DNA of 32,084 bases from a virus (taxonomy: Duplodnaviria; Heunggongvirae; Uroviricota; Caudoviricetes): the IMG/VR virus record IMGVR_UViG_2802429222_000004; one strand, 5' to 3'. This document shows positions 1,820 to 23,846 of the stretch, piece by piece. The translations under genes were made by a program, and so were the position numbers. The notes under the pieces were generated by a model. It saw only the letters and a list, made by a program, of their open reading frames with translations, did not search any database and was not told where the DNA came from. How positions within the stretch are numbered: the first letter of the stretch is position 1; the number at the start of each line of letters is the position of its first letter.

Positions 1820-2000
1820 GGAGAACCGTATGAATGAGCCTCGTTGTATTGCTCAGTTACTGCGTAACGAAAGCCCCAGGGCGATTGACTTCACCATCAC
1901 CCACGGTAAGGGGCGTAAGGGAATCATTATCCGCACCAAAAAACAGAGTCCGTTAAAAAAGGCTCTGACCTTTCTGAAAAGCCGGAGGGTATGGAAATGA
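1806..2000 (+). CDS. Small early protein (P2 orf78 position)
   Basis: 64-aa ORF overlapping the cox stop and the B start, at the position of P2 orf78. Confidence 0.5.
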   Translation: MNHVKENRMNEPRCIAQLLRNESPRAIDFTITHGKGRKGIIIRTKKQSPLKKALTFLKSRRVWK

Positions 2001-2497
2001 CAGTGATGACGCTTAATCTCGTTGAAAAACAGCCAGCAGCTATGCGCCGGATAATTGGTAAGCATCTGGCCGTCCCTCGCTGGCAGGAGACATGCGATTA
2101 TTATAATCAGATGATGGAACGCGAACGGCTAACGGTTTGCTTTCATGCGCAGTTAAAACAGCGTCACGCAACGATGCGTTTTGAAGAAATGAACGACGTC
2201 GAACGTGAACGACTGGTATGTGCAATTGATGAATTGCGTGGGGCATTCTCAAAACGCCGTCAGGTCGGTGCAAGTGAGTATGCATATATTAGTTTTTTAA
2301 CAGTCAGTCAGCGTCGTACTTTATTTATGCATGCGGGATTGACAGAAAAAGAATTCAATCAGCCGTACTGGCGCATTAATGAAGAATCATGTTACTGGCG
2401 TGATGCTTTATTCCGTGCATTACGTGAATTATTCAGCCTGTTTGAGTATGCACCGACAATTCTGACGGCGGTAAAACCAGAGCAATATCTGCATTAA
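1991..2497 (+). CDS. B: Replication protein B (DnaB helicase loader-like, 168 aa)
   Basis: Position after cox and a size close to P2 B (166 aa). Confidence 0.75.
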   Translation: MEMTVMTLNLVEKQPAAMRRIIGKHLAVPRWQETCDYYNQMMERERLTVCFHAQLKQRHATMRFEEMNDVERERLVCAIDELRGAFSKRRQVGASEYAYISFLTVSQRRTLFMHAGLTEKEFNQPYWRINEESCYWRDALFRALRELFSLFEYAPTILTAVKPEQYLH

Positions 2498-2561
2498 ATA
2501 ATTAACCAGAGTTTTTAACGCACTTAATCGTGCGGGGGCTTCTTTTTGCCTGGAGAAAGTC

Positions 2562-2786
2562 ATGCATACAGTTTCTGAAAATCAGTGCGATAAATACGCA
2601 TTACTGCTGAAACAGGCCAGAACAGAAGCACAGGCCGACGCTGCGACGCGCTTTTCTTCTCATCTTGACGCCATGATTCGCCACATCACAAAGGCGGAGT
2701 TATCCCGCGTGGAGATAGTCGAGCTGCTCAGTCAGGAGTCGGAAAAATTTCACAATATCGGATTGTCTCGCGGGGAGGTGCTTTGA
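2562..2786 (+). CDS. Early hypothetical protein (P2 orf80 position)
   Basis: 74-aa ORF in the early operon between B and A. Confidence 0.6.
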
Positions 2787-3085
2787 TGTCCTGTTCTCGT
2801 TCGGTTGTATTACTGAATAACGCCTTAAAAATAGCTGTTATGGAAAATGGTGATTTGTCTCTTATTCAACTTTGTCTTGATAAAGAAAAACGCGACATAA
2901 CTGAATCTGTTATCGCGATTTATCAGAATGAATTAAACCTCCTGTCTGATGTGGTCAATTTACTTGTTAAACGCGCTGTGTTCCACAAACAAATTTCCTC
3001 AGTGGATGAACTGACAAAATTAACGACAGAACTCGCCAGTTATTGCGCTGATGTATCCAGGAAACTTAACGATAAAAGGAGCTGA
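2783..3085 (+). CDS. Early hypothetical protein (P2 orf81 position)
   Basis: 100-aa ORF whose start overlaps the preceding stop (translational coupling). Confidence 0.6.
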
Positions 3086-3087
3086 TA

Positions 3088-3312
3088 ATGCCGGACAACG
3101 TAGATTTTATTCAGGAACAACAGGCTGAATTACTGGAGCGCCAGATTAACGCGGCAAGGGTAAAACATTGCTGTGCTTCTGCGCTGGTTTGCGAAGAGTG
3201 TGACACGCCAATACCTGCTGCCCGTCGTGCGGCTTACCCGTCAGCCACGCGTTGTGTTTCCTGCCAGTCAGTCTTTGAAGCAAAAAACAAGCATTACCGG
3301 AGAATGGCATGA
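3088..3312 (+). CDS. TraR/DksA-like C4 zinc-finger protein (P2 orf82 position)
   Basis: 74 aa with CxxC...CxxC (CEECDTPIPAARRAAYPSATRCVSCQ), typical of the TraR/DksA C4 zinc-finger family. Confidence 0.7.
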   Translation: MPDNVDFIQEQQAELLERQINAARVKHCCASALVCEECDTPIPAARRAAYPSATRCVSCQSVFEAKNKHYRRMA

Positions 3313-20517: not shown

Positions 20518-23136
20518 ATGAGCACGAAATTTAAAACCGTTATCACTACTGCCGGAGCCGCAAAGCTGGCAGCCGCCACTGTCCCCGGCGGGAAAAAAGT
20601 AAACCTGTCTGCAATGGCCGTGGGTGATGGTAATGGCAAATTGCCGGTGCCGGATACCGGTCAGACGAAGCTGGTGCATGAGGTCTGGCGTCATGCCCTG
20701 AATAAAGTCAGCGTGGATAATAAGAATAAAAACTATATCGTGGCTGAACTGGTTGTTCCGCCAGAAGTGGGCGGCTTCTGGATGCGTGAGCTTGGTCTGT
20801 ATGACGATGCCGGAACACTGATTGCGGTATCCAACATGGCAGAAAGCTATAAGCCTGAACTCGCTGAAGGCTCCGGGCGTGCGCAGACCTGCCGCATGGT
20901 TATTATTGTCAGTAACGTGGCGTCCGTTGAGCTGAGTATTGATGCCAGCACGGTGATGGCGACGCAGGATTACGTCGATGACAAAATCGCAGAGCATGAG
21001 CAGTCCCGCCGCCATCCTGACGCCACACTGACAGAAAAAGGCTTTACTCAGTTAAGCAGCACAACAAACAGCACCAGTGAAAAGCTGGCGGCAACGCCAA
21101 AGGCAGTAAAAGCAGCCTATGACAATGCTGAGAAACGTCTGCAGAAAGACCAGAACGGTGGCGATATTCCAGATAAGGGCGCTTTTCTGGACAATGTTGG
21201 CGTTACCAGCCTGACGTTTATGAAAAACAACGGCGAAATGCCGGTTGATGCTGATCTGAATACATTTGGTCCCGTTAAAGCTTATCTGGGTACATGGTCA
21301 AAAGGCACTTCGACTAATGCACAGATAGCCAAACACTTCCCGGAAGAGAATGCCGTTGGTGTCCTGGAAGTATTTGCAGCAGGAAATTTTAACGGAACAC
21401 AGCGTTACACTGTTCGCAATGGAAATACTTATATTCGCCACCTGACGGCTAAATGGAACGGCAAAGATGGTCCGTGGAGCGTATGGCGTAACGTTCAGGG
21501 GACGGCCAGAACGCTGGATGACAGTATGGATCTCGATTTTCTGGCCGGGGAGGATAACCTGGGTACATGGAGAAACAGTTCCAGTACGTTAGCTTCTCTT
21601 GCGTTGCACTATCCCGAAGCTGGTAGTTACGCGCAGGGAGTGCTTGAAGTTATGAAAGGTGGTGGATTCAGTTATACCCAGCGTTATACCACTCGCCGTG
21701 GGAACATGTATGTCCGCTGCCTTGCTGCAAACTGGGATGCATCAAACCCACAGTGGGAACCGTGGCTGAGAATTGGCAGCCAGACTGCAAGCAGCTTTTA
21801 TGACGGTGATTTGAATGATCTAACCGACCCTGGTATTTACAGTGTGACGGGTAAAGCAACCAATGGTCCATTGCTGGATTCATCTGGTGCAACACTACTA
21901 GGGGTGTTAGAGGTTATCAGACGTTTTGATTACGTTGCTGTATTGCAACGCTATACCACTACAGGGACAGGAACGACAACGAAAGGTCGCACGTTTGAGC
22001 GCGTCTATACCGGCAGTTCGTGGAGCGAATGGCGGGAAGTCTACACCTCGTATTCACTTCCCCTGAATCTGGGTATCGGCGGTGCTGTGGCAAAGCTCAC
22101 TAGCCTGGACTGGCAGACCTACGACTTTGTGCCGGGCAGTCTGATAACCGTTCGGCTTGATAACATGACCAACATTCCCGACGGTATGGACTGGGGCGTC
22201 ATTGATGGCAACCTGATAAACATCGCAGTTGGTCCGAGTGATGATTCCGGTACGGGGCGCTCAATGCATGTATGGCGCAGCACTGTAAGTAAAGCGAACT
22301 ACCGCTTTTTTATGGTGCGTATTTCAGGAAATCCGGGAAGCCGCACGATCACGACAAGACGTGTGCCAATTATTGACGAAGCTCAGACATGGGCGGCGAA
22401 ACAGACATTCAGCGGTGGTCTTTCAGGCGAACTGTCCGGCAATGCGGCTACAGCAACAAAGCTGAAAACGGCAAGGACAATTAACGGCGTAAAATTTGAC
22501 GGCTCGGCAAATATTGAAGCGTTTCCGCCAGGTGTTCCGCTGCCGTGGCCATCAGATACACCACCTGCAGGCTATGCAATTATGCAGGGGCAGACGTTTG
22601 ATAAGGCAGCATATCCGAAACTGGCTATAGCCTATCCTTCTGGTGTTATTCCGGATATGCGCGGTTGGACAATCAAGGGCAAACCCGCCAGTGGGCGTGC
22701 TGTATTGTCACAGGAACAGGACGGGATTAAATCGCATACTCACAGCGCCAGTGCGTCAAATACGGATTTGGGAACGAAAACAACCAGTTCGTTTGATTAC
22801 GGGACGAAGACAGTCAGTACGTTTAACTACGGAACAAAAACCACTAATACCACTGGTAACCATACACATACCATTTACAGAGGGAATGCCAATACTAATG
22901 GTGAAACCGGTAAAACAGGCTTTGACAACCCATCGTTTAATGGCACATCAGGAGCTGCCGGGAATCATGCCCACACGGTAGATATTGGTGCACATAATCA
23001 TACGGTTGGTATTGGTGCACATTCACACACGGTTGCTATTGGCTCACACGGGCACTCTATTACCGTTAATGCTACAGGTAATACAGAAAACACCGTCAAA
23101 AACATCGCATTTAACTATATTGTGAGGCTTGCATAA
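20518..23136 (+). CDS. H: Tail fibre protein H (872 aa, mosaic extended C-terminus)
   Basis: The N-terminus ([24 protein letters not shown]...) is the conserved P2 H-type baseplate-attachment domain. The C-terminal part is longer than P2 H (669 aa) and ends in GTKT and HxHT repeats. Confidence 0.85.
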
Positions 23137-23714
23137 TGGCTTTCAGAATGAGTGCAGAAGCACAAACTATCCGCGTTTTCAATTTACTTAATGGAACCAA
23201 TGAGTTTATTGGCGAAAGTGATGCATATATTCCGCCGTATACTGGCCTGCCTGCAAACAGTACAGATATTGCACCGCCTGATATTCCTGCTGGTTATGCA
23301 GCCGTTTTCAATGCAGATGAAATGAAATGGGAACTGATGGAAGACCATCGCGGAAAGACCGTCTACGAAACGAAAACAGGAGCAGCCATTTATATTTCTG
23401 AACTTGGCGTATTACCTCCAGACGTGACAGCTATTTCCCCGGAGGGGGATTATCAGAAATGGGACGGAAATGCGTGGGTGAATGATGAGAATGCAGAACG
23501 TGATGCGCTTGTCAGAGCGGCGGAGTCTCAGAAGAAAGAGCAGATTGCATATGCAGGTGAAATTATTGCCACGCTGCAGGATGCTGTCGATTTAGATATG
23601 GCTACCGAGGAAGAAAAGTTAAGCCTGACACACTGGAAAAAATACCGTGTGCTACTGAATCGCGTTCAGCCGGAAAATGCCCCGGATATTGAATGGCCGG
23701 AACTACCGCAATAA
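23136..23714 (+). CDS. G: Tail fibre assembly chaperone G (192 aa)
   Basis: Start overlaps the H stop, at the position of P2 G. Confidence 0.8.
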
Positions 23715-23719
23715 ACACA

Positions 23720-23746
23720 GGCGGGCTGATTGCCCGCCTTTTCTTT
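23720..23746 (+). terminator. Rho-independent terminator after G
   Basis: GGCGGGC-TGATT-GCCCGCC hairpin followed by TTTTCTTT. Confidence 0.7.
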
Positions 23747-23846
23747 ACCGGTGGTTGTGCTGTTGATTAGCCAACCGGGACAAATAGCCTGACATCTCCG
23801 GCACAACTGAAAATACCACTCACCCATTAACCACGGAGTTAAACGG

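Follow-up and report, generated by a model that had tools for sequence, protein, structure and literature searches.

The window analysed here, the whole stretch of 32,084 nucleotides deposited as IMG/VR record IMGVR_UViG_2802429222_000004, carries a phage genome whose backbone is ~96% identical to that of P2 and in which the order of the genes J-I-H-G is the same as in P2. The tail-fibre gene H extends from 20518 to 23136, stop codon included, on the + strand (as do all the features described below) and encodes a protein of 872 aa. Its identification is based on the ORF listing, on the Pfam domains Phage_tail_fib (PF12571; aa 1-151, E=1e-57) and Phage_fiber_2 (aa 170-210) and on the match with PHROG 295, tail fiber (E=2e-250); an NCBIfam scan of H and of the downstream gene G assigned a family to neither. 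An overlapping ORF of 112 aa in the +2 frame (22643-22981), which no evidence supports, was regarded as a consequence of the H frame and discounted.

A previous sequence-only reading of this DNA had described H as a P2-like fibre, longer than its P2 counterpart, with an extended mosaic C-terminus acquired by recombination. The sizes are correct, since the ORF listing gives 872 aa and P2 gpH in AF063097 has 669 aa, and so is the P2-like character of the N-terminus, aa 1-204 (20518..21129) being 84% identical to P2 gpH and presumed to represent the baseplate-attachment end of the protein. On the other hand, the C-terminus, although longer than in P2, is replaced rather than extended: alignment of the two proteins to check whether the C-terminus of H could be that of canonical P2 gpH yielded no significant similarity past aa 204, the DNA-level match with P2 is limited to nt 1-606 of the gene, and H lacks the distal receptor-binding region of P2 (gpH aa ~205-669), everything that follows aa 204 being unrelated to P2 gpH. 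HxH motifs, which abound in the distal part of H, number zero in the P2 protein. The native target of P2 is LPS (PMC9594776).

The bulk of the extra length of H over P2 gpH lies not in the tip but in the central region, where three tandem knob-like domains of ~90 aa each occupy aa ~235-515 (21220..22062). These repeats, undetected by BLASTP self-comparison, become visible only in an L-INS-i alignment, in which they have in common the pattern GVLEV..QRYT..W..W, and in the structure model. The AF2 model of this region (pLDDT 81) finds as its top PDB match in Foldseek the R1 pyocin fibre 6CL5 (E=2.7e-5, probability 1.0) and matches also 5EFV (E=1.5e-4, probability 1.0); the overall TM-scores are low because the orientation of the domains is arbitrary in a monomer model. 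The modelling thus supports the presence in central H of a tandem β-sheet knob fold of ~85-90 aa of the R-pyocin type. Relatives bear the name “pyocin knob domain-containing protein”.

The distal part of H begins with a linker of 28 residues (aa 640-667; 22435..22518), located at the junction between shaft and exchangeable tip as defined by the similarity breakpoints and shared by alternative distal modules. It is followed by a collar domain of the T4 gp37 type (aa 668-739; 22519..22734), in which Pfam recognizes Collar PF07484 at aa 672-719 (E=2e-10, 40.7 bits with a cut-off of 24), which aligns with the gp37 collar of 2XGF and has a mean identity of 85% among 55 homologues. The ascending strand of the needle (aa 740-784; 22735..22869) contains the first HxH motif (H740/H742), three GTKT repeats and the second HxH motif (H782/H784); the His residues of both motifs are invariant and the mean identity of the strand across homologues is 82%. 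Next come a hypervariable distal loop or head of 30 residues (aa 785-814; 22870..22959), defined by homologue variability, the descending strand (aa 815-846; 22960..23055) with HxH motifs 3-6, and a conserved C-terminal strand which, with the stop codon, occupies 23056..23136 and has a mean identity of 87%; the last 16 residues of H, from a glutamate onward, are identical in T4 gp37 and in lambda Stf.

The succession of GTKT repeats and HxH repeats was correctly recognized from the sequence, and translation of 22720-23136 reproduces exactly the peptides then quoted. The GTKT repeats start at aa 752, 762 and 772 with a 10-aa unit GTKTxSxFxY, whereas the HxH motifs are at aa 740, 782, 817, 826, 835 and 844, the last four being spaced by the 9-aa unit HxHTVxIGA. 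Tandem Repeats Finder detects both repeats at the DNA level, with periods of 30 nt (22774-22841) and 27 nt (22972-23042), respectively. Histidines are concentrated here: aa 735-872, which make up 16% of H, contain 12 of its 20 His residues, all 12 within HxH motifs. A count of six such motifs, far above chance, was reached in only 4 of 100,000 shuffles of the segment and never in 20,000 when the entire H sequence was shuffled. In the 56 homologues the HxH histidines are either invariant or conserved at 90% or more.

The proposed likeness of this segment to a metal-binding fibre needle turned out to be a direct homology. In a phmmer comparison aa 653-872 of H match PDB 2XGF (gp37 800-1026, chain residues 16-242) with E=3e-76, and the identity of the tip amounts to ~68% with T4 gp37 and to ~69% with lambda Stf. 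In gp37 seven iron ions lie along the needle in Fe(His)6 sites, their ligands being HxH motifs contributed by three chains, and H929/H931 are essential (PMC6957217, PMC6116203). By homology, the H tip would, like gp37, be trimeric, bind metal, depend on a chaperone for folding and bind a receptor. For aa 640-872 the monomer model obtained from AF2 with a 56-sequence alignment is poor (pLDDT 56, pTM 0.22), as expected for a single chain of an intertwined trimer.

The tips of H and T4 gp37 (785-1026, 2XGF) are alike in having a collar, an HxH needle, an apical variable region and the same C-terminal motif, yet gp37 has seven HxH motifs and H has six, while H contains one additional 10-aa GTKT repeat and one additional 9-aa HxHTVxIGA repeat. 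How the individual HxH motifs of H correspond to the seven sites of T4 is ambiguous at the level of alignment. HMMER aligns five distal and proximal T4 sites with H and drops H915/H917; MAFFT and the spacing patterns suggest instead that the 929/966 pair has been lost and one lambda-like proximal repeat gained, and according to the spacing patterns the pair which flanks the T4 head at 11-aa spacing would be absent in H. In view of this ambiguity, the apical region of H may be about half the size of that of T4, so that its fold may differ from that of the T4 head. The apical loop is, moreover, unrelated in sequence to that of gp37, so that the receptor of H need not be OmpC or LPS. The carriers of the tip also differ, being an 872-aa P2-type fibre in the present case and, in T4, gp37 (1026 aa), a member of the four-protein long fibre. 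With lambda Stf, H shares the three GTKT repeats and the four HxH repeats spaced 9 aa, but the HxH motifs of Stf number eight and its head, of 45 aa, has an additional flanking HxH pair; furthermore, the Stf of lambda (Ur-lambda) is the side fibre of a siphovirus, whereas H is the baseplate fibre of a myovirus.

Tips of this kind constitute the “T4- and lambda-based RBP family” of Magaziner and Salmond (2022), found in more than 200 phages with a chaperone gene adjacent (PMC9659904). This family occurs on otherwise unrelated phages and includes ORF6 of Citrobacter phage PhiNP, which uses LPS Glc-II as its receptor; H shares with it a ~215-aa distal module, conserved save for the specificity region, and an adjacent gp38/Tfa-like gene, and is likened to the family by these features (PMC9659904).

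Within this conserved module, aa 785-814 stand out: their mean identity in 55 homologues is 18% with an entropy of 2.6 bits, compared with 81–87% and 0.4–0.7 bits in the flanks, and dozens of unrelated alternative loops are found between identical flanks. This loop, placed between HxH motifs 2 and 3, is likely the specificity determinant and is predicted to constitute the receptor-contact apex; its position corresponds to that of the gp37 tip subdomain which in T4 binds OmpC/LPS (PMC6957217, PMC9659904), and the receptor specificity of both T4 and PhiNP maps to the tip (PMC9659904). No paper, and no receptor information, came up when the literature was searched for peptides of the loop (GFDNPSFNG and others). 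As to the extent of the segment, 22720-23136, which had been singled out as probably defining the host range, does cover needle and head and its role is supported by inference, but the probable determinant is narrower, namely the loop, and the homologous module begins upstream, at ~aa 653 (nt 22474). The exchanged cassette is wider than that segment, comprising collar, needle, head and the chaperone gene and ending at 23714.

The chaperone gene, found in the position of P2 G (23136..23714), encodes a tail-fibre assembly chaperone of the lambda Tfa/T4 gp38 type (Pfam Caudo_TAP, E=3e-40). Its start overlaps the stop of H by one base, an arrangement found also between the fibre and chaperone genes Stf/Tfa of lambda. 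Over the full length of G, both domains included, the identity with lambda Tfa amounts to 64%; with T4 gp38 it is 29%, whereas the match of G with P2 gpG is restricted to the C-terminal half (39%), the N-terminal half being unrelated to the P2 protein. This restriction fits the modular model of Tfa, in which the N-domain is specific to the fibre and the C-domain is conserved (PMC9608196), since the half of G that aligns with P2 would be the conserved one. That the downstream protein is a gp38 adhesin of the T2/S16 type, which caps gp37, is not borne out, as in the profile searches G matches Caudo_TAP and Tfa PHROGs only and as its homologues are the chaperone gp38 of T4 and lambda Tfa. The H-G transcription unit is closed by a terminator-like hairpin (23719..23739), whose 8-bp stem contains 7 G-C pairs and precedes a T run; in P2 a terminator is annotated at the equivalent place after G.

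That recombination shaped this region, as had been proposed, is supported by several lines of evidence. The similarity to H genes of the NC_070906-type peduovirus stops at gene nt 1967 and that to lambda, STYP1 and T4 starts at nt 2002-2014 (the lambda and P2 breakpoints being taken from BLASTN coordinates), one and the same shaft occurs with at least four unrelated distal modules, attached just past the conserved ATATKL...FDG...NI linker, the GC content drops to 0.43–0.47 in the cassette from 0.56–0.59 in the flanking genes, and the tip is accompanied by a lambda-Tfa-like chaperone. Peduovirus P24A7b contains this cassette as well, and so do P2-like prophages in no fewer than 12 complete E. 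coli genomes, where the identity is 99.2%; in the prophage of E. coli 5-1 (WP_106474431), whose context is P2-like, H together with G is 99.2% identical at the nt level. The 874-aa tail fibre of Peduovirus P24A7b (YP_009877362) has the same architecture and a tip 99.5% identical at the protein level; nt 1921-3197 of the two are 93–100% identical, as against ~52–78% in the knob region, which is the most diverged stretch of H with respect to both close relatives (52–85% nt identity). Protein P0001 (308 aa) is 92% identical to the H tip, its 4.7 kb contig being uninformative on morphotype.

The homology of the tip, the conservation of its motifs, the hypervariability of the loop, the boundaries of the mosaic segments and the linkage with the chaperone gene are directly observed, and their best explanation is, with high probability, that a receptor-binding tip of the T4 gp37/lambda Stf type has been joined to a P2-family fibre through a conserved linker. 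According to the mechanism that can be envisaged, the P2-family N-terminus would dock the fibre on the P2 baseplate and three H chains would intertwine, as their homology with 2XGF predicts, to form a six-stranded antiparallel β needle, each chain running up through HxH 1, the GTKT repeats and HxH 2, turning in the apical loop (aa 785-814), descending through HxH 3-6 and ending near the collar. At each HxH motif and its two symmetry-related copies a single metal ion, which in T4 is Fe2+, would lie buried in octahedral coordination, with six predicted sites compared to seven in T4 and to the eight HxH motifs of lambda Stf. The metals would have a structural role, receptor specificity would reside in the hypervariable apical loop, folding of the tip would require the co-inherited lambda-Tfa-like chaperone encoded directly downstream, and recombination would shuttle the cassette of tip and chaperone among P2-like, lambdoid and T-even phages.

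The gp38 of T2/S16 is an adhesin, and G could likewise be retained on the mature tip and contribute to receptor binding, or even provide it, leaving to the HxH needle mainly the function of a scaffold. The extensive identity of G with lambda Tfa speaks in favor of this premise, as does the reported presence of Ur-lambda and Mu Tfa in mature virions, where Mu Tfa contributes to receptor recognition (PMC9608196); but T4 gp38, itself a homologue of G, is not in the virion (PMC9608196), the matches of G are those of a Caudo_TAP/Tfa protein, the pattern of variability puts diversifying selection in the loop of H, and the T4 gp37 tip itself binds OmpC and LPS (PMC6957217), so that we regard this reading as unlikely. 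Still somewhat less probable is that the three knobs, acting as saccharide-binding sites as has been proposed for Knob2 of the R-pyocins, are the main determinant of host range, with only a generic or secondary contact by the tip. The knob fold is supported by AF2 and Foldseek, the knobs are the most diverged part of H, and in R-pyocin fibres Knob2 is the most diverse part, knob-like domains binding sugars (PMC6116203). However, a single knob shaft is found in combination with at least four distal modules, which argues that it is the distal module that carries specificity; in addition, hypervariability in the tip is sharply confined to one loop and the specificity of T4 and PhiNP has been localized to the tip (PMC9659904). 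Since knob domains contribute to specificity in pyocin fibres too (PMC6116203), the tip may nevertheless not be the sole determinant.

There is, finally, hardly any likelihood that the GTKT/HxH repeats are incidental low-complexity or decaying sequence, devoid of structural role, in a defective prophage gene. Although the repeats are short and visible as tandem repeats in the DNA, the 872-aa ORF is intact and followed by an intact chaperone gene, the His positions are invariant across 56 homologues, the identity with a solved functional structure is 68% and Peduovirus P24A7b, a sequenced phage, carries an identical tip; the conservation effectively refutes this reading.

The preferred reading, that of a gp37/Stf-type tip joined to a P2-family fibre, leads to a more tentative suggestion. 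The form of the tip with six HxH motifs (spacing 39-32-6-6-6), predominant among the best-scoring homologues retrieved and for which we know of no solved structure, might represent a structurally distinct and uncharacterised “short-apex” subclass, in which a compact ~30-aa loop replaces the T4 head and the receptors recognized are different from OmpC and the LPS core, the loop of H setting a specificity common to P2-like prophages of clinical E. coli; at present we consider this somewhat less probable than its contrary.

The mosaicism of P2, lambda and T-even fibres and the HxH-iron needle are both established and the family has already been described, so that nothing conceptually new emerges from this locus. 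Since the repeat-rich end of H is a well-known and widely exchanged tip, the case is a real but ordinary one of tail-fibre module swapping. For particle engineering, chimeras of P2 and S16 gp37 have been constructed artificially (PMC9594776), and the H locus is their natural equivalent. The segment would mark the part of the fibre that sets the host range in this prophage, and tip and chaperone, joined at the ATATKL...FDG linker, would make up a retargeting unit of practical use in the engineering of P2-based or pyocin-based particles.

The window, whose DNA is ~96% identical to that of P2 over ~80% of its first 25 kb, is a Peduovirus (P2-like) genome. Its tail-fibre gene H (20518–23136, + strand) encodes 872 aa as against 669 aa in P2 gpH (AF063097), these being the lengths quoted in the sequence-only reading, and the peptides given there are found exactly in the translation of 22720–23136. 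The GTKT repeats (aa 752, 762 and 772) follow a 10-aa unit, GTKTxSxFxY, and the HxH motifs (aa 740, 782, 817, 826, 835 and 844) are arranged, as far as the last four are concerned, in a 9-aa unit, HxHTVxIGA; at the DNA level, Tandem Repeats Finder detects the two arrays with periods of 30 (22774–22841) and 27 (22972–23042), respectively. All 12 His residues of aa 735–872 lie inside HxH motifs, and as many as six such motifs turned up in only 4 of 100,000 segment shuffles, while shuffling the whole protein 20,000 times never gave that number; P2 H contains no HxH motif. The GTKT/HxH pattern is real and beyond chance. A 112-aa ORF (22643–22981, + strand, other frame) overlaps the tip-coding region and is presumed spurious.

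It is textbook knowledge since the 1990s that tail-fibre segments are exchanged horizontally among P2, Mu, P1, lambda and the T-even phages and that the "His boxes" of T-even gp37 are recombination motifs. Both points are reported in papers by Haggard-Ljungquist et al. (1992) and Tetart et al. (1996, 1998).

Alignment with canonical P2 H revealed that the C-terminal region is not shared, the match being limited to aa 1–204 (84% identity; nt 1–606, counted from the H start). H is 203 aa longer than P2 H, yet the earlier description of an "extended" C-terminus is a misnomer: the tip (aa 653–872) does not extend P2 H, everything beyond aa 204 having been replaced. Breakpoints within H, three at the least, lie around gene nt 720, 1500 and 1900–1980, and the gene is a mosaic whose neighbouring segments are closest to different peduoviruses. 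Over nt 1–720 the identity is ≥90% with both Peduovirus P24A7b and an NC_070906-type peduovirus, reaching nt 780 with the latter; over nt 721–1500 it falls to 52–68% with P24A7b and, from nt 781, to 55–85% with the NC_070906 type; over nt 1501–1860 it is 63–78% and 92–100%, respectively, whereas over nt 1921–3197 (tip and chaperone) it is 93–100% with P24A7b, the NC_070906 type being unrelated after ~nt 1980. Since similarity to the latter ends there and lambda, STYP1 and T4 become similar from nt 2002–2014 onwards, the shaft–tip junction can be placed in the linker of aa 640–667 (22435–22518), which carries the motif ATATKL(K/Q)T(A/P)R.I(N/S).V.FDG...I. In proteins with the same knob shaft this motif is followed by at least four unrelated distal modules (e.g., ...NLTPKNIGAFASGKTGD, ...NINTLVSRNRVAALSGS, ...NLTPEDIGALPITGGTL), and it acts as a universal junction. 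Furthermore, the GC content is 0.56–0.59 in the flanking baseplate and sheath genes J, I and FI versus 0.43–0.47 across tip and chaperone, the dip at 22550–23600 reaching 0.43–0.48. Together with the confinement of the P2 match to aa 1–204, the segmental identity, the module swapping at the linker and the GC drop support the proposed acquisition of the tip by recombination, in which the transfer may have gone in either direction.

The gene that follows, G (23136–23714, + strand), encodes a Caudo_TAP protein and shares one base with the H stop, the arrangement also seen in lambda stf–tfa. Along its whole length the product has 64% identity to lambda Tfa, and it is 29% identical to T4 gp38, whereas it resembles P2 gpG in the C-terminal half only (39%), a pattern that agrees with the modular Tfa model of a fibre-specific N-terminal domain joined to a conserved C-terminal oligomerisation domain (PMC9608196) and which shows that tip and chaperone travel together. 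Lambda and Mu Tfa are reported to stay on the virion (PMC9608196) and, by analogy, G may do so as well. Between G and the sheath gene FI there are only 132 nt (23715–23846), including a terminator-like hairpin (23719–23739), and no moron occupies this slot in the window; in P2 the same slot holds the lysogenic-conversion gene fun(Z), and in the near-identical prophage of E. coli 5-1 a hypothetical gene together with the remnant of an IS3 element. In a metagenomic contig (L008:1698–2567) a gene for a 289-aa Macro-domain protein (PF01661) lies between a tip gene (P0001), 92% identical to that of H, and its Tfa gene, an unusual passenger within a fibre–chaperone cassette.

When full-length H is compared with solved structures, one strong match is found at the distal end, namely the T4 gp37 tip (PDB 2XGF, E=3e-76), in which aa 653–872 align with chain residues 16–242, i.e., gp37 800–1026. 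When the three tips are aligned together, that of H shows ~68% identity with T4 gp37 and ~69% with Stf, the side tail fibre of lambda, the last 16 residues being the same in all three; aa 672–719 match the Pfam Phage Tail Collar domain. In gp37 the tip region forms a needle of three chains, along whose axis seven iron atoms lie, and one of their sites, H929/H931, is essential (PMC6957217); at every site six His form an octahedron, one HxH motif coming from each of the three chains, and R-pyocin fibres as well as the P2 gpV spike likewise bind iron through HxH motifs (PMC6116203). The His residues of all six motifs of H are invariant or ≥90% conserved in an alignment of 56 homologues and, in light of this conservation and of the 2XGF homology, the "His ladder" predicted earlier is a true homologue of the metal-binding needle, from which we infer that the needle of H probably binds metal. 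The AF2 model of the tip, a monomer only, is uninformative (pLDDT 56), so that it is the invariance of the motifs, together with 68% identity to 2XGF, that underlies the putative trimeric fold with His6–metal sites.

The residues between successive HxH motifs number 39-32-6-6-6 in H, 29-11-34-11-6-6 in T4 and 39-11-45-11-6-6-6 in lambda. In the simplest reading lambda, with eight motifs, would be the full form; T4 would be without one proximal rung (one 10-aa GTKT repeat ascending and one 9-aa HxH repeat descending), whereas H would keep this rung and be without the distal HxH pair flanking the head at 11-aa spacing. Alternatively, the HMMER pairwise alignment pairs H782 with T4 H929 and H817 with H966, dropping H915/H917. 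Six metal sites are predicted for H in either case. The six-motif form is common and no oddity, ~110 of the 120 best-scoring homologues retrieved having this pattern with a 30–39-aa apical gap.

The largest new element, to which H owes the greater part of its added residues, consists of three tandem knob-like domains of ~90 aa each (aa ~235–515; 21220–22062) sharing GVLEV..QRYT..W..W. The PDB structures that best match their AF2 monomer model (pLDDT 81) are the fibre of R1 pyocin (6CL5, E=2.7e-5) and gp45 of Staphylococcus phage Phi11 (5EFV), both known to have knob domains (PMC6116203), and many relatives are named "pyocin knob domain-containing protein" at NCBI. The same shaft, at 55% identity, is seen in the "large distal tail fiber subunit" (P0205) of the T-even Shigella phage JK23. 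The knobs may add a second binding site.

Among 5426 complete E. coli genomes, 3586 contain matches to the tip DNA, mostly partial and at 80–90% identity, at least 80% of its length being covered in 345 of them; H and G together are covered to this extent in 97. The best match of H + G is ≥99% in 13 records and, among the matches listed, 12 carry the full cassette at 99.2%; that of E. coli 5-1 lies in a P2-like prophage, annotated "phage tail protein" and "tail fiber assembly protein". The fibre of P24A7b measures 874 aa, its tip being 99.5% identical to that of H, and tblastn finds the module in 629 phage records, among them those of Tequatrovirus, lambdoid phages, peduoviruses and Felixounavirus. 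The family, with its conserved flanks, variable specificity region and adjoining chaperone, was described by Magaziner and Salmond (PMC9659904), and P2–gp37 chimeras have been engineered (PMC9594776). Overall, what the sequence-only reading had observed is confirmed and its interpretation supported with refinements, the tip of H belonging to a family that is already known, is widespread and has been characterised structurally, with near-identical copies in public databases.

Across 55 homologues conservation amounts to 85% in the collar, 82% and 81% in the ascending and descending strands and 87% in the C-terminal strand, versus only 18% (entropy 2.6 bits) at aa 785–814 (22870–22959), the peptide of which had no match in the literature. 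Between identical flanks the homologues display many unrelated loop sequences, and it is at this position that T4 and its relatives diverge and that T4 receptor specificity maps (PMC9659904; PMC6957217); the loop is taken to be the receptor-contact apex.
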